Assembly: GCF_000015225.1 (NCBI RefSeq)
Contig: NC_008698.1
Coordinates: 1,290,001-1,322,000, forward strand
DNA from: Thermofilum pendens Hrk 5
GTDB taxonomy: Archaea; Thermoproteota; Thermoprotei; Thermofilales; Thermofilaceae
Direction: 5' to 3'
DNA: 32,000 nucleotides
Made by a program: the position numbers and the translations under genes
Notes under the pieces: model-generated
Database searches by the model: none
The model's input: only the letters and a program-made list of their open reading frames with translations
Told to the model about the DNA's origin: nothing
Shown: positions 3,047 to 25,592 of the stretch, one piece after another
How the letters are laid out: every line of letters begins with the position of its first letter
Position numbering within the stretch: position 1 is the first letter of the stretch

Positions 3047-3496
3047 TTGCTTTCCGTGTTGCCGCGGGAGGTGGAGGAGAGGGTTCGGGAGGTTTGCGGC
3101 GAGCTGAGGAGGAGGGGCTTCGACTGCGACGTCTCGCCGGAGGAGTTCGCCGCGTACATGGAGGCCGACACCTACACCGGGGACAGGGCGGGGCTGTGGG
3201 GCGTCGTGGGCAACAGGTACCTCTTGATCCACGAGCTCGCGGAGATAAGTGCGCTCAAGAGGATGGGGTACAGGGTCGACCGGGGCGTCTTGAGGAGGGC
3301 CTACCCGGACTCCTACAGGGCCCACCTGGAGGCTATGGACGTCGAGCTGAGGGTCGCCGCTGAGGAGGGGGACCTCGGGTGGGTGGAGGCTAGGCTGAGG
3401 GACCTGGCCGGCTACCTCTCGGACCCCCTCCTGCCCGAGGGGCTCGCGGAGGAGGTGGGGCGCCTGCTCCGCAAGTACTCGGGCTACGTGCGCTAG
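3047..3496 (+). CDS. Hypothetical protein (149 aa)
   Basis: ORF with a TTG start at 3047; GTG 3056 is an alternative. A TATA-like TTTTAAG lies at 3030-3036. Composition is coding-like and no family was recognised. It contains LLIHELAEISALKRMG, an HExxE motif rather than canonical HExxH. It sits immediately upstream of the CARF gene. Confidence 0.5.
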   Translation: MLSVLPREVEERVREVCGELRRRGFDCDVSPEEFAAYMEADTYTGDRAGLWGVVGNRYLLIHELAEISALKRMGYRVDRGVLRRAYPDSYRAHLEAMDVELRVAAEEGDLGWVEARLRDLAGYLSDPLLPEGLAEEVGRLLRKYSGYVR

Positions 3497-3528: not shown

Positions 3529-4374
3529 ATGGCGGGGGTGCTCGTAGTCTCCACGGTGGGTACGAGCATACTGGGCAACGTGGAGACCAAGTGGCTGGAC
3601 AGGGTCCCCGAGAAGTACCGCGGCCTCGTCAAGGGTTCTTCGAGGCTCAGCGTCACGGACGAGAGGCAGAGGGAGTTCGAGGCGAGGGCCCACCCCGGCG
3701 ACGAGCTCTTCGACGCCGTCTACAGGGTCCTGGAGGCTAGCCCCAGGGAGGCTAGCGCCGAGCTTAACGCTCTGCTAGGCTTCCTGGAGAGGAGGAAGGG
3801 TAGCCTTGCGGGCGCGGACGTCGAGCTCATGTTCTACTCGACCGACACTGGTACGGGGTACTTCTGCGCCAGGCTCGTCGAGAGGTACGCGAGGGAGAGG
3901 CTCCGGGGGGCGCTGGGCGGGGCGAGGGTCCAGGTCCAGGAGCCCGTGAAGCTGAAGAAGTTCGGGTGGGGCTACGAGTACTTCCACGAGGCCCTCCTCG
4001 ACATGGTGGACAAGGCGGCTAGGCTGATGGCGAACAAGAAGAGGAGCGGGTACAGGGTCTACGTTAACGCTACGGCTGGCTTCAAGGTGGAGGCGGCGTA
4101 CCTGACGCTGGTCTCGCTACTCGTAGGCGCGGACTCCGTGTTCTACGTGCACGAGGCTACGAGGGACGTCATCGAGCTACCCGTGCTACCCCTCGGCTTG
4201 AAGGCGAAATACGCCGATGCCTTGCGGGAGCTGAGGGAGCCCACCCCCAGGGGCGCCCTGGAGAGGAGGGGCGTAAGCGTGGAGGAGCTCGAGGAGAAGG
4301 GCCTCGTCGAGGTCAGGGACGGGCTGGTAGTTGCGAGGGAGTGGGTCAGGAAGCTCCTCGAGCTAGTCGAGTAG
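3529..4374 (+). CDS. CARF-domain protein (APE2256/Csm6-N-terminal type) with a short C-terminal helical/wHTH-like extension
   Basis: 281-aa ORF with an ATG start and a TATA-like GTTTATCT about 27 nt upstream. The N-terminus VLVVSTVGTSILGN and the later VYVNATAGFKVEAAY match the two CARF ligand-pocket motifs (xTxGTS and NxTxGxK). There is no HEPN Rx4-6H motif. The C-terminal ~60 aa (RGALERRGVSVEELEEKGLVEVRDGLVV) look wHTH-like, which is inference. Confidence 0.7.
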   Translation: MAGVLVVSTVGTSILGNVETKWLDRVPEKYRGLVKGSSRLSVTDERQREFEARAHPGDELFDAVYRVLEASPREASAELNALLGFLERRKGSLAGADVELMFYSTDTGTGYFCARLVERYARERLRGALGGARVQVQEPVKLKKFGWGYEYFHEALLDMVDKAARLMANKKRSGYRVYVNATAGFKVEAAYLTLVSLLVGADSVFYVHEATRDVIELPVLPLGLKAKYADALRELREPTPRGALERRGVSVEELEEKGLVEVRDGLVVAREWVRKLLELVE

Positions 4375-4445
4375 GAGCGTTGCCGCGCCGCGGCCCGGCG
4401 CCGGGTGTCCGTAAAGGTTTTTAGGCTTGCCGAGGTCTAGTCTCG

Positions 4446-5411
4446 ATGGCCTCCAGCCTTAAAGGCGAGATGCTCAGGCTGCTCAGGGAGGACGAGGAGT
4501 TTAGGTACGCGGTAGTGGGGCTTCTGGGGCTCGAGGATCTAAGGGCGGAGTTGAAGGGGTTGAGGGAGGCTGTCGAGAGGCTAGTGGAGGCACACGCGAG
4601 GGCCGAGGAGAGGCTGTCCAGGCTAGAGGCGGCGGTGGCCGGGCTCGGGGAGGCTGTTTCCAGGCACAGCGAGGCTATCGCTAGGCTAGAAGTAGCCGTA
4701 GCCAGGCACGACGAGGCAGTAGCTAGGCTGGAGGCGGCTGTAGCTAGGCTGGCGGAGGCTCAGGCGAAATCCGAGGAGAGGCTTGCCAGGCTGGAGGAGG
4801 CTGTGGCTAGGCAAAGCGAGAGCATAGCGAAGCTGGAGGCGGCAGTGTCTAAGCACAGCGAGGTAATAGCCAGGCTGGAGGCGGCAGTAGCCAAGCACGA
4901 TGAGACGATAGCTAGGCTAGAGAAGGCCGTAGCCAAGCACGACGAGTCCATCGCTAGGCTGGAGAAGGCTATAGCTAGGCACGACGAGGCAATAGCTAGG
5001 CTCGAGGAGGCTGTGAGGGGGCTTGCCGCGCAGGTCGGCAGGCTCAGCGAGGCAATCGGCTTCGGGCTGGAGGACGTGGCGGCCCTCATGGTCCCGGGCT
5101 GGCTGTACAGGCACCTGGGCGTGGAGGTGGAGCTGGGCAGGGGCGTCGTGAGGGTGGACGGGGAGGAGGTGGAGGTCGACCTGTACGGGGAGGGGACCAG
5201 GGAGGGGAGGAGGGTCTTGGTCGTAGGCGAGGTGAAGGCGAGGATTTACAGGGACGACGTGGACAAGTTCTACCAGAGGGTCTACGCGAGGCTCGCCGGG
5301 AGGGAGGCGGGGGAGGTCCTGGGGGTTCTGTTCGGCTTCTTCGTGCACCCAGCCGCCGACGAGAGAGCCCGGGAGCTAGGGCTCTACGCGCTCGCACCTT
5401 ACAAGCGCTGA
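4446..5411 (+). CDS. Coiled-coil protein with a C-terminal PD-(D/E)xK-like domain (paralog of 23241-23969)
   Basis: 321-aa ORF with ATG start and a TATA-like element at about 4414-4425. There is an N-terminal box MLRLLREDEEFRYAVVGLLGL, then about 150 aa of heptad/14-mer repeats. The C-terminus reads GEEVEVDLYGEG...RRVLVVGEVKARIYRDDVDKF, which fits a D...(D/E)xK nuclease-core pattern. Confidence 0.75.
   Translation: MASSLKGEMLRLLREDEEFRYAVVGLLGLEDLRAELKGLREAVERLVEAHARAEERLSRLEAAVAGLGEAVSRHSEAIARLEVAVARHDEAVARLEAAVARLAEAQAKSEERLARLEEAVARQSESIAKLEAAVSKHSEVIARLEAAVAKHDETIARLEKAVAKHDESIARLEKAIARHDEAIARLEEAVRGLAAQVGRLSEAIGFGLEDVAALMVPGWLYRHLGVEVELGRGVVRVDGEEVEVDLYGEGTREGRRVLVVGEVKARIYRDDVDKFYQRVYARLAGREAGEVLGVLFGFFVHPAADERARELGLYALAPYKR
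4617..5057 (+). repeat. In-frame tandem repeat (21/42-bp period) encoding ARLEAAVA(K/R)HDExI units
   Basis: Residues 58-204 are built from alternating heptads ARLEAAV / A(K/R)H(D/S)ExI. Five near-identical 42-bp units occupy 4785-4994. The repeats also generate spurious antisense ORFs (4686-4898, 4760-5089). Confidence 0.85.
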
Positions 5412-8934: not shown

Positions 8935-10320
8935 ATGGGTATGAAGGCAAAGACCCTCGCACTGCTAGTAGCAGTAGCAGTGGTCGCCGCCTACGTGATG
9001 TTCACGGCGCCTAAAATGCTACCCCAGCAGCCGGCTACAGCGCCCGCCGAGAAGCCTAGAAACGCCACAGTCGCTCTGAGGGTTCACGGCGTTGGGGCCC
9101 TGCTCGTCAACGGCTCAAGCTACGTGAACACCACCCTGACGCTCAGGGTTCCGGCGGTCCTGGCTATCAACGCGTCGGCGCCGAAGGGCTGGAGGCTGAA
9201 AACGCTGATGGTGAACGGGTCGCCCGTTTTACCTGGCGTAGCGAAGGTGTATGGGAACACTACCGTCGAGGCTGTGTTTGAAAGGGTTTTCTGCACTGTT
9301 TACCTGCGCGCGAACGTCGAGGGTGCTGGGGCTAGGGTTAACGGCTCCCTCTACCGGCTCCCGGCGTCCGTCGAGGTTCCGTGCCCGTCGACAGTGCTCG
9401 TCGAGCCCGTAGCCCCGGGCGGCTACAGGCCCGTCAACTCCTCGGCCGCGCTGGAGGTCTCCTCGAACTCCTCGTTGCTCCTAGTCTTCGAGAGGTCCAG
9501 GAGGGTGGCGCGGTTCGTCAACGTCAGGGTCCCCGTCTCCCTCAACGGGACTGTCTACGCGGGGGACTTCGAGGTGGGCTTCGAGGGGGTGCTTAGGCTG
9601 AACCTCTCGCCTTACGGCGTGGACGACGCTGGTTGCGTGCCGTTCAACGAGACCGTCAAGGTGTGCCTCGAGGGGTGGAGGAGGCTCTCGACGAACCAGA
9701 CGCTCAGGGCGAGGTGGCTCGCGCTCAACCTCTCGGATAGCGAGGTATTCGAGCAGGTGTGGGGCTATGCGCCCGCGAAGCTCGAAGGAGCAGTCATAGA
9801 GCTGATAGCCGGCAACACCACCGTGAAGACCGTCGCGCAGCCCTCCAAGATGATGGTCGTACCCTTCCGCGCCGTGTACAAGTACCTGGGCAACGGCTGG
9901 TTCTGGGTAAACGGCTCCGACTGGGTCTTCTACATATCCATGCCTCCCTGGAAGAAGATAAAAGTAGAGCTCAACTACACGGCTTGGGGAGGAGCATGGG
10001 GAAGGCTCGCGGTGGTCGTCAGGAACGACAACCTATACTTCGACGTGGGCGCAGCCTTAGGCAACACGCCTACGCTCACCTGCGTGATAGACAGGGGCAT
10101 AATCGACCTCTTCTACCCCTGGACCTTTAAGAGCGAAGACGAGATCAACCGACTCTTCATACAAACGGACTACTCCAAGTACTTCTCCTGCGCAACTTGG
10201 GAGAGGAGGACAGCCGCGGGGCCATCGCTCCGCGTAGAGCCGGGAATGAAGCAGGGAGACCTGAGGTTCGATGGCACAGGGGAAGCCTACATAAGGATAA
10301 CGATACTCGAGCAACCCTAA
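8935..10320 (+). CDS. Secreted or membrane-anchored protein with many N-glycosylation sequons
   Basis: 461-aa ORF with ATG start and a TATA-like CTAAATAA at 8907-8914. There is an N-terminal hydrophobic segment KTLALLVAVAVVAAYVMF. I counted 17 N-x-S/T sequons (NAT, NGS, NTT, NAS and others). No family was recognised. Confidence 0.7.
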   Translation: MGMKAKTLALLVAVAVVAAYVMFTAPKMLPQQPATAPAEKPRNATVALRVHGVGALLVNGSSYVNTTLTLRVPAVLAINASAPKGWRLKTLMVNGSPVLPGVAKVYGNTTVEAVFERVFCTVYLRANVEGAGARVNGSLYRLPASVEVPCPSTVLVEPVAPGGYRPVNSSAALEVSSNSSLLLVFERSRRVARFVNVRVPVSLNGTVYAGDFEVGFEGVLRLNLSPYGVDDAGCVPFNETVKVCLEGWRRLSTNQTLRARWLALNLSDSEVFEQVWGYAPAKLEGAVIELIAGNTTVKTVAQPSKMMVVPFRAVYKYLGNGWFWVNGSDWVFYISMPPWKKIKVELNYTAWGGAWGRLAVVVRNDNLYFDVGAALGNTPTLTCVIDRGIIDLFYPWTFKSEDEINRLFIQTDYSKYFSCATWERRTAAGPSLRVEPGMKQGDLRFDGTGEAYIRITILEQP

Positions 10321-13732: not shown

Positions 13733-16297
13733 CTAGGCGGCGGGCGCGGGAGGCCTTTCCGCTTCGAAGAGGTAGCGCGAGACGGGGTGCAGGTCCCCTA
13801 CTCTCTCGACAAGCCTCTCGGAGACAGAGATACACCCATGCCTAACCCAGTCGAGTAGCCTGAGCGCCCCCTCCACGTCGTAGAACCTGTGCTTCGCCTG
13901 CCTCACGCACTCTTCGCGCAGGAGCTTGTCTTCCTCTAGGGTCTTCTCGCTTATGCGGGAGTACCCGAAGCTCCTCCTGAGCTCGAACGCTACCACGTAG
14001 ACGTAGGGCGAGCTCTTCACGGCCTCCTCGACTTCCCTTCGGCCCGCGCCCAGGAGGTACTCCAACGGGTCGAAGCTGGCCTCGTGGCGGACCAGGATGC
14101 CGTAGCTCCTCGGGATCACCTTGCTCACACTCCCGCTACTCCAGAGCAACGCCGCCAGGGTGTTCGCGATGTAGTCGCCGAAGGGGTAGAGGAGAACAGT
14201 CGTCGTGGCGCGAGGCTCTGGGGATACGCCCAGGAACCTGTCCAGCGCGCCTAGAGCGCTGGCCTTAACTCTGTCAACGACCATCCTGCGGGGGCCGGGC
14301 ATGGGCACGCCGCGCGCCGAGAGCTCCTCTGCGAGCACGGCGAGGCCCCTCCTAGCCTCCTCGTCGAGCCTGAACGCCACTCCGCCGGATCTCCACTCGC
14401 CGAGTGAGGTGCCTCTCCTGTGAAGCCTCGCGGCCTTCGAGAGGAAGCGGTACACCTCTAGCCCCACGCTCTGAGGTGCCAGCACGTAGCCGCCCCTCCA
14501 CACGGGGATGGCGAAGCGGTCAGAGGCCTCGGGCTCTACGATCACAAAGCGCCCCCTCAGCTCCTTCACCCTCCAGCACTTACCCCCCAGCCTGATGACA
14601 ACGCCCCTCTTCATCAGCCTCAGGTTGACTACGTCCACGACGCCCACCCTCTCCCGCCCGTGCCTCACCTCCAGCTCGCTCCTCTCGGGGATCATCGTGA
14701 AGAACGCGCCGATCTTACGCCACGCCTCGGGGAAGCGCCCCCCGAGCCTGAGCACCCTCGCCCTCTCGCCGTAGACGTCCACGACTTCTCTCTCCTCGAC
14801 GAGGCCCCTCTCCTCCAGCACCCTCAACGCCTCTCTAGCGCCGAGGCCCCAGGACGCGGGTACGTGCGAGAGGAGCGAGCCCAGGAGCTCTGCGACAGCC
14901 TGAGCGCCCGCCTTGTCCCCGTGCTGTAGTACCAGGGCTAGGGCCTGGCGCAGGGCTAGGTCCATTGCCGGCGGAGGCCCTCTTCTCGCTCCGAACGAGC
15001 CCCTGCCGAGCATGGACAGTATGGCCGCGGACTCCACGAGGTCGTTCATGTCGAGGCACACGAGAGTCCCCCTAGCGGGCTCGCCGGGCCTGTGCGAAGC
15101 CCTCCCGACGCGTTGCGCAAAGTACGCCGGCAGGGACGGGGACCCGACCTGGAAGACCCTTTCAACGGACCCCACGTCTATCCCTAGCTCGAGGGTCCTA
15201 GTGCACACGACGGCTTTCACCTCGCGGTCCTTGAACTTCCTCTCAGCCTCCCTCCTCTTCGACGCGCCCATCGAGCCGTGGTGCACGAGTATATCGCCCA
15301 GCCCCCTCTTCTCGAGCTCCGCGTGGAGTTCCTCCGCCTCGGACCTCGTGTTGACGAATACGAGGTACCCGCTACCCTTCCCCATTAGCTCTTCGAGCGC
15401 GTCTACGAGCTCCTCAGCGCTCCTACCGCGGCGTAGCACGACCTCCGCGTCAATCCTCCTGAGCCCGGGATCCCGCACGACCCGGACCTTCCCGTCCGAC
15501 CCGCCGAAGAGCCGCGCTATCCTGCGGGGGTCGCCGACTGTCGCGGAGATGAGTATCCTCTGGAGCCTCGGGATCCCGAAGGTCGCCTTCAGCCTCTCGA
15601 GGAGGACGAGGAGGTGCAACCCCCTCTTCGACTCTGCGAGCTCGTGGACCTCGTCCACTATGACCCACCTCAGCTTCGCGAGGTGCTTGCGGAACCTGTG
15701 CTTGGTGTCGAGGATTGCCTCCAGGGACTCCGGGGTGGTAACGAGGACGAGCGGGGGCTTCTCGGCGAGCTTCGTCTTCTCGTTCTTCTTGATGTCGGCA
15801 TGCCACACGCCCACGAGGTAGCCGTCGCCGAGGGCCGAGCGGACGTAGGATCTAAGCCTCCTCGCGACGTCGCTACAGAGCGCCCTCAGGGGGGTGATGT
15901 AAAGCACGTAAACCCCTGGCTCCAGCCTCCCAGCCTCCCTCTCGGCGGCCAGGAAGTGTAGAACGGGCAGGAAGGCGCACTCAGTCTTCCCGGAGCCCGT
16001 CGGCGCCACTAGGAGGACGTTCTCCCCCCTGAGTATCCTGGGTATCCCGAGGACCTGGATCGGCGTCGGCTCCCTAAGCTCGCGCTCTCTCCCACGGATC
16101 GCCTTCCTCACCGCGGGGTGCAGAGCGGAGAAGGGGTACTCGGCCCCCCTCAGGGTAGCCGTGAGCCTCAGCCTAGCGGTGATCGAGAGCTTGCGCAAGC
16201 GTAGCGCCAAGGCGGACAGCCACGGCTCCGAGTAGACGCCGGCGAGCCACGCGAGGAAGGAGGCGTAGGCGCGTAGCTTCGAGACAACCCCGCTCAA
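13733..16297 (-). CDS. Lhr-type superfamily-2 DEAD/DEAH-box helicase
   Basis: 854-aa ORF. Motifs present are PTPIQ (Q motif), VAPTGSGKT (I), DEVHEL (II), SAT (III), HHGSM, TRTLELGIDVG (V) and QRVGRASHR (VI), followed by a long C-terminal extension. The start was read as TTG 16297-16295, overlapping the cas3'' TGA (TTGA). The start codon is uncertain, but no alternative ATG or GTG lies upstream of the Q motif. Confidence 0.8.
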   Translation of the reverse strand: MSGVVSKLRAYASFLAWLAGVYSEPWLSALALRLRKLSITARLRLTATLRGAEYPFSALHPAVRKAIRGRERELREPTPIQVLGIPRILRGENVLLVAPTGSGKTECAFLPVLHFLAAEREAGRLEPGVYVLYITPLRALCSDVARRLRSYVRSALGDGYLVGVWHADIKKNEKTKLAEKPPLVLVTTPESLEAILDTKHRFRKHLAKLRWVIVDEVHELAESKRGLHLLVLLERLKATFGIPRLQRILISATVGDPRRIARLFGGSDGKVRVVRDPGLRRIDAEVVLRRGRSAEELVDALEELMGKGSGYLVFVNTRSEAEELHAELEKRGLGDILVHHGSMGASKRREAERKFKDREVKAVVCTRTLELGIDVGSVERVFQVGSPSLPAYFAQRVGRASHRPGEPARGTLVCLDMNDLVESAAILSMLGRGSFGARRGPPPAMDLALRQALALVLQHGDKAGAQAVAELLGSLLSHVPASWGLGAREALRVLEERGLVEEREVVDVYGERARVLRLGGRFPEAWRKIGAFFTMIPERSELEVRHGRERVGVVDVVNLRLMKRGVVIRLGGKCWRVKELRGRFVIVEPEASDRFAIPVWRGGYVLAPQSVGLEVYRFLSKAARLHRRGTSLGEWRSGGVAFRLDEEARRGLAVLAEELSARGVPMPGPRRMVVDRVKASALGALDRFLGVSPEPRATTTVLLYPFGDYIANTLAALLWSSGSVSKVIPRSYGILVRHEASFDPLEYLLGAGRREVEEAVKSSPYVYVVAFELRRSFGYSRISEKTLEEDKLLREECVRQAKHRFYDVEGALRLLDWVRHGCISVSERLVERVGDLHPVSRYLFEAERPPAPAA

Positions 16298-22212: not shown

Positions 22213-22923
22213 TCACAGGAGGAGCCTTCCGAGGTCCGTCGCGACGTAGCCGCCATCGACTTGCCTCACGAGCCCCGCTTCCTCCATCCTCTTCAGGTAC
22301 CTGAACACGGTGCTCCTATCCTTGCCCAGCAACCCGCCGAGGTCGCTTGCGCCTAAGGGGCCGCTCTTCTCCAGGGCTGAGAGCACCTCGAGCCAGGCCT
22401 CGGGGACGCCTACCCCCAGCACCCTCGAGAGGCGCGGCAACCGCAAGGCCCTCCCCTGCCCCTCCAGGTACACCTCGACCTCGGGGTCAACCCTCCACCT
22501 GGTGAGCAAGTAGGCCGTCAGAACCGCGATGCCCAGCGCCCTCATGCCGCCCGTAATCGAGATCCTCACCCTTTTGTCCTCGAGCCCCCTGAACAAGGAC
22601 TTCACGTTGATAACTGCTGCAACGAAGTCGTCGAGCGGGACCTCCCTCTTCTCCACGGAGAAGCCCGGCCTCCTCGCCAAGCCCATCATGCCGACTACGC
22701 GCTGGAACTCCAGCCACGCGCGCTCAGCCCTCTCGTCCGGGAAGCCAGCGGTCAGCACCACCACCCTAGCGCCCTCCGCCAGCCCCTCCGACGCCGCCGA
22801 GGCAACAGCGCTTATCAGGGGCCCCGGCTCGAAGCCCAGCGTCAACACCAGTGCATCGATCACGCGTATAGCCCCGCCCCGCCCCCTAAATAACCTCGCG
22901 GTCGGCGCCCCTAGTGTCATCAC
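22213..22923 (-). CDS. csa3: Csa3-type CARF + winged-HTH transcriptional regulator
   Basis: 236-aa ORF. ALVLTLGFEPGPLISAV and ISITGGMRALG are Csa3 CARF motifs. The C-terminal LGASDLGGLLGKDRSTVFRYLKRMEEAGLV is a wHTH. It lies immediately upstream of the I-A operon. Confidence 0.8.
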   Translation of the reverse strand: MMTLGAPTARLFRGRGGAIRVIDALVLTLGFEPGPLISAVASAASEGLAEGARVVVLTAGFPDERAERAWLEFQRVVGMMGLARRPGFSVEKREVPLDDFVAAVINVKSLFRGLEDKRVRISITGGMRALGIAVLTAYLLTRWRVDPEVEVYLEGQGRALRLPRLSRVLGVGVPEAWLEVLSALEKSGPLGASDLGGLLGKDRSTVFRYLKRMEEAGLVRQVDGGYVATDLGRLLL

Positions 22924-23240: not shown

Positions 23241-23969
23241 CTACGTGTATATCTCTACCCCTAGGATTCTCGCGTCTTCGAGCGCCCTAGGGTCGACGTA
23301 GGGCGATACCATGATCAACCTCGGCTTGACTCTGTTCACCTTCTCGTATAACTCTCCGATCCTCCGGAAAACCGCTACGTCTCCTCTTGAAACGCTCGAC
23401 TTTACCTCGATCAGTATGTGCTCGCCGTCTTTCACGGCGACGTCTACCTCGACCATTGCCGGGTGCCCGTAGACCTCGCCTTCCCTATCGTAGTACATCC
23501 ACCTTTCAACCTTCCCGGCGCCGAGGATCCTCTCAATAACCCCCCTCATGCCCTCTCTGAAGGCGGACTCCGACGCTATACCCCATCTAGCGCCGAGCGC
23601 GTCTATCCTCCTCCTGAGCTCGTCGAAGCCTCTGTTGAAGTCCTCTCTCAGCCCCTTGAGCTCTGCCTCGATCGCCTCGAACCTCTTGTACGCCTCCTCC
23701 CACTTCCTGTTGTTCTCCTCCCATCTCTTATTGTTCTCTTCCCACCTCTTGCTATTCTCCTCCCACATTCTCCAGTTTTCTTCCCACCTTTTGCTGTTCT
23801 CTTCCCACCTTCTGTTCTCGAGCTCGACGAGCTTGTTGAAGTCCTCCCTCAGCTTCTTCAGCTCGCCCAGTACTGTGTCGAGGCCCAGGAGGCCGGCTAC
23901 GGCGAGCCTAAACTCCTCGTCCTCCCTGAGTAGGCGCAGGAGCTCGGCTTTAAGAGCTTGCACGGCCAA
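23241..23969 (-). CDS. Coiled-coil protein with a C-terminal PD-(D/E)xK-like domain (paralog of 4446-5411)
   Basis: 242-aa ORF with a TTG start and a TATA-like TTTTTAAG (plus strand 24001-24009) upstream. It has the same N-terminal box (LLRLLREDEEFRLAVAGLLGL) as 4446-5411. The stalk consists of WEEN heptads. The C-terminus reads GHPAMVEVDVAVKDGEHILIEVKSSVSRGDVAVF, a D...ExK pattern. Confidence 0.75.
   Translation of the reverse strand: MAVQALKAELLRLLREDEEFRLAVAGLLGLDTVLGELKKLREDFNKLVELENRRWEENSKRWEENWRMWEENSKRWEENNKRWEENNRKWEEAYKRFEAIEAELKGLREDFNRGFDELRRRIDALGARWGIASESAFREGMRGVIERILGAGKVERWMYYDREGEVYGHPAMVEVDVAVKDGEHILIEVKSSVSRGDVAVFRRIGELYEKVNRVKPRLIMVSPYVDPRALEDARILGVEIYT
23682..23807 (-). 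repeat. In-frame 21-bp tandem repeat encoding six WEENxxx heptads
   Basis: Residues 55-96 read WEENSKR WEENWRM WEENSKR WEENNKR WEENNRK WEEAYKR. On the plus strand this appears as a repeated ttctc(c/t)tcccac unit. Confidence 0.85.
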
Positions 23970-24087: not shown

Positions 24088-24957
24088 CTAGCCCTGCGCC
24101 CTTGCGTGTCCCCCGGGCTTCCGGGGCGCGGCGCGCAGGCGCCTCGGGGGGCCTAGCGGTGACATCTCGACGTGGCCGAAGCCTATGCTCCTCGACCTCC
24201 CTATGCCGAAGCGGAGCGCGAAGGCCATCAGCCTCCTGAAGTCCTCCGCGTACTCGGACTTCGTGTCTAGTAGCTCGTAGGCGACGAAGCCCACGAAGCC
24301 CCTCTCGGTCGCGGGCTTCCCGTCCCTGACGGTGTAGAGCGCGGTGACGGGCCTAGCGTCGTAGTCGAGCTCGGCCAGCGCCCTGAGGGCCCACGCGTGT
24401 ATCCTGCCCGGAGTAGCCTTCGCCAGCCTGACGCCTCTCATCGCCGCGTCGTAGGCTAGGTGCGCCAGTGCGAGCGGGAGGTCCGGGACGAGCCTGTACC
24501 TCCTCCTCGGACCCCCGGCTTTGAGCAGCGACCCCCTGCCGGGGACGGGCACGAGGGTTGGGGTCAGGAAGCGCAGGGCGAACTTCTCGGGGACATCCTC
24601 CCTCAGCGCCGAAGCCTCGAAGACCTCGACCTCGGCTACCCTAGCCCTCATCTCCGCCGCCCCGAACACGAAGACAGCCTCCTGCCTCGGCAACCCGGGG
24701 GCGCCGTCCCAGAGCATCGAGACCCTCGCCCTCAGGACCTCCCCCTCCCTCGCGAGCAGCGGCGCCTCCTCCCCGGCGAGCTTGTACAGCGGCCTATCCC
24801 CCCTGAAGAGCACGGAGAAGGAGGCCCTCCTACCCATGGTCTCCGGATCTAGCCCCCAGAGAGCCGCGAAGGCTGTCCTCGTCACCTTGCTCGTAAACGG
24901 GGGTAGCAGGGCGTCCCTCAAAGGCACGATCTCCAAGCGGGCGGTAAAGACGTACAC
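24088..24957 (-). CDS. cas6: Cas6 endoribonuclease
   Basis: 289-aa ORF with a GTG start; a TATA-like TCTTATAG (plus strand 24979-24986) lies about 25 nt upstream. The C-terminal glycine-rich loop FGIGRSRSIGFGHVE fits the GxGxxxxxGxG pattern of Cas6. It lies divergently next to the CRISPR leader. Confidence 0.7.
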   Translation of the reverse strand: MYVFTARLEIVPLRDALLPPFTSKVTRTAFAALWGLDPETMGRRASFSVLFRGDRPLYKLAGEEAPLLAREGEVLRARVSMLWDGAPGLPRQEAVFVFGAAEMRARVAEVEVFEASALREDVPEKFALRFLTPTLVPVPGRGSLLKAGGPRRRYRLVPDLPLALAHLAYDAAMRGVRLAKATPGRIHAWALRALAELDYDARPVTALYTVRDGKPATERGFVGFVAYELLDTKSEYAEDFRRLMAFALRFGIGRSRSIGFGHVEMSPLGPPRRLRAAPRKPGGHARAQG

Positions 24958-25222: not shown

Positions 25223-25592
25223 GAAGCAACTGTGAAAGCATTGAAAGAGAAGCTTAGGTTCTACATTCTCGTCGCGCGCGTGAGAGATGGAAAGAAGCAA
25301 CTGTGAAAGCATTGAAAGGACGCCGAGGCGAGCCGCCTCAGGGCGTCGTTCGTGCCGAAGCAACTGTGAAAGCATTGAAAGGACAGGGAGTTGCCGCTCA
25401 CGCGCAACCCGCGCTCCGCGAGCGCCGCGAAGCAACTGTGAAAGCATTGAAAGGGGGCGTCACGGCTTACACCCCGCGTATCCTTTCGAGGAGAAGCAAC
25501 TGTGAAAGCATTGAAAGTTTCGTAGTCCGCACAGTGGCCATGTGAATTCTCTTGATAATTCCATGCAGAAGCAACTGTGAAAGCATTGAAAA
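25223..25592 (+). CRISPR. CRISPR array: 6 repeats of GAAGCAACTGTGAAAGCATTGAAAG (25 bp), 5 spacers
   Basis: Repeats start at 25223, 25294, 25357, 25429, 25493 and 25568. The first five are identical; the last ends in A instead of G. Spacer lengths are 46, 38, 47, 39 and 50 nt. The repeat 3' end ATTGAAAG matches the 8-nt crRNA 5' handle known from archaeal type I-A/III systems. Confidence 0.95.

Follow-up and report, generated by a model that had tools for sequence, protein, structure and literature searches.

The gene at positions 4446..5411 (+) of a 32,000-nucleotide stretch of the Thermofilum pendens Hrk 5 genome (NC_008698.1, positions 1,290,001 to 1,322,000; hereafter the window) is an open reading frame (ORF) for 321 amino acids with an ATG start, whose product combines a short N-terminal box (N-box), a coiled-coil stalk and a C-terminal head of the PD-(D/E)xK type. 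We consider it rather probable that this protein, here called copy 1, is a stand-alone predicted DNA endonuclease that oligomerises through its coiled coil and belongs to a modular, rapidly evolving family found in variable or defence islands. The three-part architecture had been proposed in an initial annotation of the stretch and is real, and the second copy that it reported on the other side of the cas genes, at 23241..23969 (-) (copy 2), is likewise present; the window holds these two copies only. From the accession arithmetic of neighbouring proteins, copy 1 is presumably Tpen_1343 / ABL78740. Its protein sequence is identical on the two contigs on record, which belong to two T. pendens assemblies.

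A flexible hinge connects the small PD-(D/E)xK head to the C-terminus of a long heptad coiled coil of the parallel type, which is capped by the highly conserved N-box, and the N-box and stalk form a module that is combined with several head subtypes. The stalk would oligomerise the protein, as a dimer by the rule of V/I at 'a' and L at 'd' or as a trimer by family precedent, so that two or three heads would be held together. The joined heads could then act as a Mg2+-dependent DNA endonuclease via E209, E243, D245, E262 and K264. The N-box might set the register of the repetitive stalk or dock a partner, and His-Asp/Glu pairs at core d/e positions might tune stalk assembly, for example by making it dependent on metal or pH. 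The genes are single transcription-unit-like, multi-copy and patchy in thermophilic archaea and bacteria, with the paralog as the only conserved partner. The position among the cas genes of T. pendens would reflect residence in a variable or defence island rather than a dedicated CRISPR accessory function.

The head spans residues 208-321 (5067..5408 (+)), as delimited by AlphaFold2 (AF2) modelling, Foldseek, conservation and hhalign. The initial annotation had suggested a restriction-endonuclease-like core, and a confident AF2 model of residues 189-321 (predicted local distance difference test, pLDDT, 89.7; elements H20-36, E43-49, E52-64, E67-75, H81-96 and E102-108) indeed has the PD-(D/E)xK fold. 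Foldseek against the PDB returned first NucS/EndoMS (2vld, 5gkj, 5gke), then AF1548 (1y88), MspJI and the cA4-activated Card1 (6xl1), with a probability of 1.00 for NucS, AF1548, MspJI and Card1. Further matches were XisH, VC1899, Bax1, PaqCI, NucC and Can2, and all of these are PD-(D/E)xK nucleases. The template modelling scores (TM-scores) of 0.4-0.6 at 15-19% identity denote superfamily-level similarity only. The predicted structure confirms that the domain of copy 1 belongs to the PD-(D/E)xK phosphodiesterase superfamily.

Scanned at full length against Pfam and NCBIfam, copy 1 gave coiled-coil noise only, such as SlyX, DUF16 and SMC. The C-terminal 138 residues alone matched PDDEXK_10 (PF07788) with 15.6 bits (E 0.016), below the gathering cut-off of 21.2 bits, and DUF3782 (PF12644, cut-off 24.4 bits) matched neither the full-length protein nor the head. 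Querying with the head retrieved 84 homologs that are 43-65% identical to it. Many of these carry a precomputed PF26618 / DUF8196 assignment, partly marked 'weak' and seen in homologs of 45-65% identity; copy 1's own record has no such match. Searching PDB sequences with the profiles of both families yielded nothing but coiled-coil noise and no solved head of any member. The EVD...GEVK pattern noted initially is present in copy 1 and corresponds to D245, E262 and K264. Candidate active-site residues are E209 on alpha-1, E243 and D245 on beta-2, and E262 and K264 on beta-3, and copy 1 carries the full motif set with E209 as motif I, D245 as motif II and E262-V-K264 as motif III. Over 154 distinct members of the copy-1 family, E209 is E in 152, E243 is E in 146 and E262 is E in 152; R266 is conserved as R in 146, H301 as H in 144 and P302 as P in 152. 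E209 and E243 are better conserved than D245.

The stalk (residues 30-201, 4533..5048 (+)) is a heptad helix of about 172 residues according to the heptad listing, AF2 and the repeat finders. In the full-length AF2 model, which is a monomer with a mean pLDDT of 89.1, the helix runs uninterrupted over residues 30-201 with a pLDDT of about 95, and 1.5 Å per residue gives a length of about 25 nm. The hinge from stalk to head (residues 198-206, GRLSEAIGF, 5037..5063 (+)) is the only segment of this model with a pLDDT below 50, and the N-box appears as helices 2-15 and 17-27 with a pLDDT of 63-71. All Pfam matches in the stalk region are coiled-coil matches. With 192 residues before the linker, the stalk of copy 1 is the longest among 75 sampled relatives, for which the median is 79. 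Its heptads carry V or I at 'a', and 'd' alternates Leu with His (or Ser/Gln); V/I at 'a' with L at 'd' favours a parallel dimer under the classic GCN4 rules.

Tandem Repeats Finder reported a period of 42 nt at 4788-5014 (5.4 copies, 78% matches, score 214) and also a 21-nt period over 4671-5014, and a repeat search counted 16 copies in 21-nt register in the stalk-coding DNA. This periodicity is far beyond chance. The repeats had first been described as near-perfect, with five almost identical 42-bp units at 4785-4994. Near-perfection holds at the peptide level, where near-identity is seen in the final three or four units; at the DNA level it does not, with a pairwise identity of 64-81% between the five units. 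Opposite-strand ORFs within the repeat region (e.g. 4760..5089, -) were rejected as by-products of the GC-rich repeat. The histidines were correctly placed at H74, H88, H137, H151, H165 and H179, to which H50 has to be added. Block 1 (4659..4742 (+)) consists of two 14-residue units (SRHSEAIARLEVAV, ARHDEAVARLEAAV) with H74 and H88, and block 2 (4764..5015 (+)) of six units of 14 residues or 42 nt with S109, Q123, H137, H151, H165 and H179 at 'd'. The His series, first described as a fixed repeat position about every 14 residues, falls into these two blocks, which are offset by 7 residues. In the heptad listing, six of the stalk histidines occupy the core 'd' position and H50 an 'a' position.

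The N-terminal box MLRLLREDEEFRYAVVGLLGL is present in copy 1, where the N-box covers residues 4-29 (SLKGEMLRLLREDEEFRYAVVGLLGL, 4455..4532 (+)) and is predicted to form two short helices, and it is common to copy 2. In a 24-sequence alignment the residues L, L, D, F, G and G are invariant, and the consensus of alignment A6 (proteins P0211-P0358) reads LKxxxLRLLREDEEFRYAVAGLLGL; the conserved length is 26-30 residues. Scanned alone, the N-box matched none of the Pfam models of the library searched. An N-box profile of 36 positions, searched against 1.84 billion representative proteins, matched 551 clusters at E ≤ 1e-3, of which 137 reach E ≤ 1e-10, with the box being N-terminal in every case. 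Among the top matches, 48 full-length sequences comprise at least six head motif types, all of which show the signature of an acidic beta-2 and a 'GE-x-K/T/R' beta-3.

Histidine layers are not a trait of the nearest relatives: in the closest relatives of copy 1 and copy 2, His accounts for about 1% of the residues in the stalk, and the layers are visible only across the wider N-box set. We analysed 110 N-box clusters with 184 stalk histidines and counted a position as d-like if hydrophobic residues stand at -3 and +4. By these counts, in which repeat units inside one protein are not independent observations, 63% of the stalk histidines occupy d-like positions, compared with 15% of all residues and 26% of Leu. 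His therewith has the strongest 'd' preference of any residue in N-box stalks and accounts for 10% of the d-like positions overall. The residue after it is typically Asp or Glu (HDE, HEE, HDK, HDR), and at least one d-like His occurs in 58 clusters and at least four in 14. The 14-residue frame h-x-x-L-x-x-x-h-x-x-H-D-x-x recurs with different heads (P0298, P0224, P0260, P0318). It is possible that the His layers serve as metal sites, as a pH or temperature switch or in the specification of the oligomeric state. The family-wide His-at-'d' preference is new here, as are the occurrence of the N-box on at least six head subtypes and the changes of stalk length by whole repeats.

Copy 2 (242 aa, ABL78756.1 / WP_011753021.1, Tpen_1359) starts with TTG and consists of the N-box, a heptad stalk of the RWEENxK type and a head with clear Pfam matches to DUF3782 (9.4e-27, 93.4 bits) and PDDEXK_10 (3e-26, 91.6 bits). 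Its public annotation reads 'PD-(D/E)XK nuclease family protein / DUF3782 / DUF1626', and 2,706 relatives were found at E ≤ 1e-5. The two copies have the N-box in common and share 47% identity over the first 100 residues. When the head family of copy 1 was compared by hhalign with an alignment of seven copy-2-type sequences, the probability was 95.7% (E 8.8e-9, 125 columns); EVEVD was paired with VEVD and GEVK with IEVK, and the DV..F and (H/D)P.A..A..LG motifs after them aligned as well. Judged by these profiles, the heads of copy 1 and copy 2 are homologous.

The expectation that stalk length would vary between strains is borne out at the family level by whole-repeat differences among close relatives; the two T. 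pendens assemblies carry the same protein. One exact 21-residue unit separates P0006 and P0007 (197 aa) from P0010 (218 aa), the number of stalk repeat units is the main difference between the near-identical P0004 (234 aa) and P0005 (207 aa), and the P0070-P0077 series has lengths of 187, 201 and 229 aa. Syntenic Vulcanisaeta genes (V. distributa versus Vulcanisaeta sp. JCM 16161, L088) encode 300 versus 244 aa and 323 versus 178 aa. These pairs show that the stalk changes over evolution as units of 7, 14 and 21 residues are gained or lost in tandem. A DNA-pattern scan of metagenomes for AKHDExIARLE had a sole match (L092), an unrelated protein with a chance ARHDEAIARLE string, and was discarded.

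Whole modules appear to move as well. V. distributa (CP002100.1) carries convergent paralogs with different nuclease heads (L087:8001-8903(+) and L087:10383-11354(-)) whose first 360 nt, encoding the N-box and stalk, are 100% identical, followed by a drop to about 30%. On the sequence level this pattern indicates either recent gene conversion or an exchange of the N-box/stalk module between heads. The gene L075:726-1478(+) is a natural chimera, with a copy-2-like N-box, a RWEENNK stalk and a copy-1-type (DUF8196) head. Formation of heteromers via shared stalks was considered as a general rule and rejected, since shared stalks hold in V. distributa only and other pairs share the N-box or nothing.

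The architecture has been catalogued since 2007, and copy 2 is already flagged as C3a181. The initial statement that no function is known was correct; the architecture itself is in the literature (PMC1913061, PMC4786415). Profile searches place copy 1 in a functionally uncharacterised superfamily made up of COG5493, of DUF3782/PDDEXK_10, which was formerly DUF1626, and of the related DUF8196. Knizewski et al. (2007) recognised in DUF1626 (PF07788, COG5493) a PD-(D/E)XK domain that follows a coiled coil, with T. pendens among the hosts (PMC1913061), and Steczkiewicz et al. (2012) listed the function of the family as 'unknown' and its distribution as patchy and suggestive of horizontal gene transfer (PMC3424549). 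Anantharaman et al. (2013) noted that restriction endonuclease genes of the DUF1626 type share operons with HEPN/MNT genes. Hartmann et al. (2016, eLife; PDB 5APZ) observed beta-layers of nonads in DUF3782 members from Crenarchaeota and solved stalk fragments of Tcar0761 as trimers; His layers or His at 'd' are not discussed there (PMC4786415). Shah et al. (2018, RNA Biol) defined cluster 181, or C3a181, with three members and Tpen_1359 as the example, and predicted it to be a 'diadenylate cyclase' (PMC6546367). The corresponding PADLOC model (PDLC01085) covers copy 2 at full length (E 9e-98) and residues 4-135 of copy 1 only, i.e. N-box and stalk (3.6e-10). The cyclase label has no backing from Pfam or from the fold: copy 2 is a DUF3782 plus PDDEXK_10 protein, and copy 1, whose head is homologous, has the PD-(D/E)xK fold in its model.

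In a scan of one genome per species over 185,579 species, we found 163 relatives of the copy-1 head in archaea and bacteria. The locus counts below refer to the best 80 of these 163 relatives with up to ±10 kb of flank. Archaeal hosts of the 80 loci belong to Thermoproteota, Bathyarchaeia, Caldarchaeales, Asgard, Archaeoglobi and Methanomethylicia, and the bacterial hosts, which are thermophilic or from the subsurface, to Anaerolineae, Aerophobetes, Armatimonadota and Acidobacteriota. Several paralogs often occur per genome, with three loci in JAGGXX01. Relatives of either head were found neither on IMG/VR viral contigs nor in PHROGs.

Cas genes were sought with T. pendens queries, with Pfam and PADLOC on the ±2 genes only, and by array detection. 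With 15 window proteins (14 Cas-associated ones and the ATPase) as phmmer queries (E < 1e-4), a Cas homolog was found in 0/80 copy-1-family loci, and the first half of the immediate neighbours (A2) likewise had none in a relaxed search (E ≤ 1). A k-mer-based finder that recovers the window's own array detected a CRISPR array at a single one of the 80 loci (L013), its other matches being stalk-coding repeats. A Pfam scan of 262 immediate neighbours (±2 genes) had no Cas family among the 25 commonest; MNT/Polbeta (6), PIN (5) and HEPN (3) are among the leading families, together with DUF3782/PDDEXK_10, ABC ATPases, radical SAM and wHTH. PADLOC assigned six neighbours to C3a181, i.e. the paralog, and single ones to Csx1, Csa3 and CARF3, the rest being generic ATPase/TnpB cross-matches. 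No cas genes were present in the eight Pfam-annotated homolog loci, three of the copy-1 family and five of the copy-2 family; some of these hold restriction-modification, HEPN/MNT, PIN or paREP1 genes and others housekeeping genes only. When 594 neighbours within 4 kb were clustered all against all, the copy-2-type paralogous nuclease came out on top (7/80 loci, or 8 with L047), followed by MNT, ABC ATPases, TnpB, PIN and HEPN. A DUF3782/PDDEXK_10 gene and a DUF8196-type gene are spaced 1.5-2.4 kb apart in two Vulcanisaeta genomes. What remains is a modest association with variable regions that are rich in toxin-antitoxin genes.

Several of our observations weigh against an active endonuclease of defence islands. 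The expected conservation of an EVD/EVK triad was found for the invariant E262 (152/154) but not for the other two positions: residue 245 is split between N (79) and D (75) in the 154 members, and at residue 264 there are 87 members with K and 64 with R (about 40%). Going by these substitutions, many family members may be inactive or may have another active-site geometry. The enrichment for defence islands is modest (5 PIN, 6 MNT and 3 HEPN among 262 neighbours), and several family loci are surrounded by housekeeping genes. The presence of both paralogs in one 32-kb CRISPR-Cas supercluster is unlikely to be due to chance if the genome has few paralogs; it fits residence in a defence island, and a mechanistic link is not required.

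The substitutions at positions 245 and 264 would also agree with a catalytically inactive DNA-binding or structural protein whose stalk bridges, spaces or tethers DNA, be it in chromatin, partition or as a scaffold. The motif III Lys is missing in some copy-2-type members (EVS/EIS) as well, a loss reported to be frequent in DUF1626 (PMC1913061), and some bacterial stalks, such as Tcar0761, have no nuclease head (PMC4786415). Still, E209, E243 and E262 are nearly invariant, copy 1 has the full D...ExK set, and the multi-copy, patchy and horizontally transferred spread is unlike that of core chromatin proteins. We therefore regard an inactive structural protein as unlikely.

The initial annotation had assigned copy 1 an accessory immune role linked to CARF and cas10 genes. 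A dedicated type III CRISPR-Cas accessory nuclease, recruited or activated during interference to degrade invader DNA, would agree with the surroundings in T. pendens. Copy 1 stands among csx1 (666-2273), the gene of a CARF protein of the APE2256 family directly upstream (3529..4374 (+), Pfam 1.5e-42) and, on its other side, a convergent gene for an archaeal ATPase (PF01637, 5459..6496 (-), Pfam 1.2e-56). Copy 2 is located between csa3 (22213-22923) and cas6 (24088-24957), 1.25 kb from the CRISPR array and near the type III module of cas10 and RAMP genes (from 25699). The array, the only one in the window, comprises six repeats (GAAGCAACTGTGAAAGCATTGAAAG, about 25223-25592) and lies between cas6 and cas10. 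It thus adjoins cas6 and copy 2, and the description of copy 1 as CRISPR-flanking does not hold. Further points in favour of a type III role are the association score of 25.55 against a cut-off of 24 for the Tpen_1359 cluster (PMC6546367), the fit of the PADLOC C3a181 model to copy 2 and to the N-terminal part of copy 1, and the resemblance of the head to the nuclease domains of Card1 and Can2.

However, Pfam scans of copy 1 gave no match to a CARF, SAVED or other nucleotide-sensing domain, and its residues 1-207 are N-box plus one long helix. Each T. pendens copy is preceded by a TATA-like element of its own: AAAGGTTTTTAGG (4413..4425 (+)) stands about 21-33 nt 5' of the copy 1 ATG in the 71-nt gap 3' of the CARF gene, and the similar CGTTTTTAAGCC (24008-23997, - strand) stands 5' of copy 2, both fitting GTTTTTA(A/G)G and both 20-35 nt from the start codon. 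As read from the DNA, the separate elements suggest independent transcription of each copy, with a promoter of its own for copy 1. The cluster of Shah et al. has three members, compared with more than 2,700 in the family. The neighbourhood counts (0/80 loci with homologs of the window's Cas proteins, 1/80 with an array, 0/5 annotated copy-2-family loci with cas genes) show homologs without an association with CRISPR-Cas, which the initial annotation itself had named as evidence against its proposal, and a family-level CRISPR link is unsupported for this reason. The CRISPR-accessory reading is not supported beyond the T. pendens genome, and we consider a dedicated type III function very unlikely.

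A repair or recombination nuclease like NucS/EndoMS or Hjc, acting as a dimer on mismatches, flaps or junctions, would match the top Foldseek hits and the Meta-BASIC connection of DUF1626 with DUF91/NucS and Hjc/Hje (PMC1913061), yet it is highly improbable in view of the missing NucS N-terminal domain and PCNA-binding motif, several paralogs per genome, fast-varying stalks, the absence of the family from most archaea and a structural likeness at superfamily level only. We give similarly little credence to a more far-reaching proposal, in which the N-box cap, the hypervariable stalks and the at least six interchangeable heads would form one modular conflict system whose His-Asp/Glu layers gate assembly and nuclease activation by metal, pH or temperature, perhaps co-opted into the T. 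pendens CRISPR-Cas supercluster. If true, it would represent a natural 'switchable coiled coil' controlling an endonuclease.

The window as a whole is a CRISPR-Cas supercluster with metabolic genes in between (7.7-13.7 kb). Between csx1 and the CARF gene lie a MazE-type antitoxin-like gene (about 2716-2958, -) and a 149-aa ORF without Pfam match (3047-3496, +), whose coordinates were transferred from L001. A 461-aa ORF between the two cas regions (8935-10320, +) has no Pfam or PADLOC match. The cas region also contains an Lhr/BrxHI-like DEAD/DEAH helicase of 854 aa (13733-16297, -; PADLOC BrxHI 1e-106, SngC 1e-83), whose gene lies immediately upstream of the HD and cas3 genes of type I-A. The type I-A genes (HD nuclease, cas3', csa4/cas8a and csa2/cas7) occupy about 16.3-22.3 kb, and unassigned ORFs among them may be cas5 and csa5. 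The ATPase_2 gene next to copy 1 was examined as a partner and rejected: such genes are near few loci only and the family is probably abundant in Crenarchaeota, so the adjacency was judged to be chance. At four unrelated family loci, proteins with an acylphosphatase domain and FRDYREEF-type tandem repeats are encoded 0.1-2 kb from DUF8196 genes (L033:2011-2709, L053:7955-8614, L063:2938-3180, L067:3536-4285 and 4239-4946). At two loci of the copy-2 family, T2SSE/T2SSF genes in type IV pilus-like sets follow 1-2 kb downstream (L086:10121-13462, L089:9905-13188), which is possibly mere synteny among relatives.

Our findings bear on the annotation of such loci. One gene of the pair, copy 2, is contained in CRISPR-typing sets of hidden Markov models (HMMs) under an unsupported function label, and C3a181 matches in CCTyper- or PADLOC-type pipelines should not be taken as evidence of a type III accessory. 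The family is far larger and more modular than the Pfam entries imply. For coiled-coil biophysics, the bias of His towards the core 'd' position offers a concrete peculiarity that can be tested. Should a defence or toxin activity be shown, a widespread nuclease family of thermophiles would join the defence-island repertoire.

Among known systems, NucS/EndoMS resembles the head most closely in structure (E 1e-4, TM-score 0.4-0.5, 15-19% identity), but only the nuclease domain aligns: copy 1 lacks the N-terminal dimerisation and DNA-binding domain of NucS, its N-terminal part is a coiled coil, and the distribution across genomes differs. Card1, Can1 and Can2 have a similar PD-(D/E)xK fold (6xl1, 7bdv, 8q3y) and are encoded near type III cas genes; copy 1 has no CARF domain, and its stalk and N-box stand where Card1 and Can2 carry the sensor. 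The C3a181 HMM fits copy 2 from end to end, whereas in copy 1 it fits N-box and stalk only, and the cluster has just three members with a score barely over the cut-off in a wider family that is not cas-linked.

With the DUF1626/PDDEXK_10 proteins, copy 1 and its family share a coiled coil followed by a PD-(D/E)XK domain, occurrence in thermophilic Crenarchaeota, a patchy distribution in bacteria and the frequent replacement of the motif III Lys. Copy 2 is a full member of PDDEXK_10 with DUF3782, and profile-profile comparison shows the copy 1 head to be homologous; copy 1 lacks the 'DREGxVYGxP' insertion and the GARWG helix of these proteins, and its relatives are filed under the separate Pfam entry DUF8196 (PF26618). 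The alpha/beta coiled coils of Hartmann et al. (2016) come from the same superfamily, in which crenarchaeal stalks are likewise unusual and repeat-rich. The stalk of copy 1, in contrast, is strictly heptad (7/14), without nonads or hexads, and does not contain the beta-layer motif [aliphatic]-A-T-K-[polar]-[DE]; the nearest string, V-A-K-H-D-E, fits at 4/6 positions and has no inserted residues. The likeness to alpha/beta coiled coils returns in some relatives, for instance L029 and L049, that have 18-residue (two-nonad) units.

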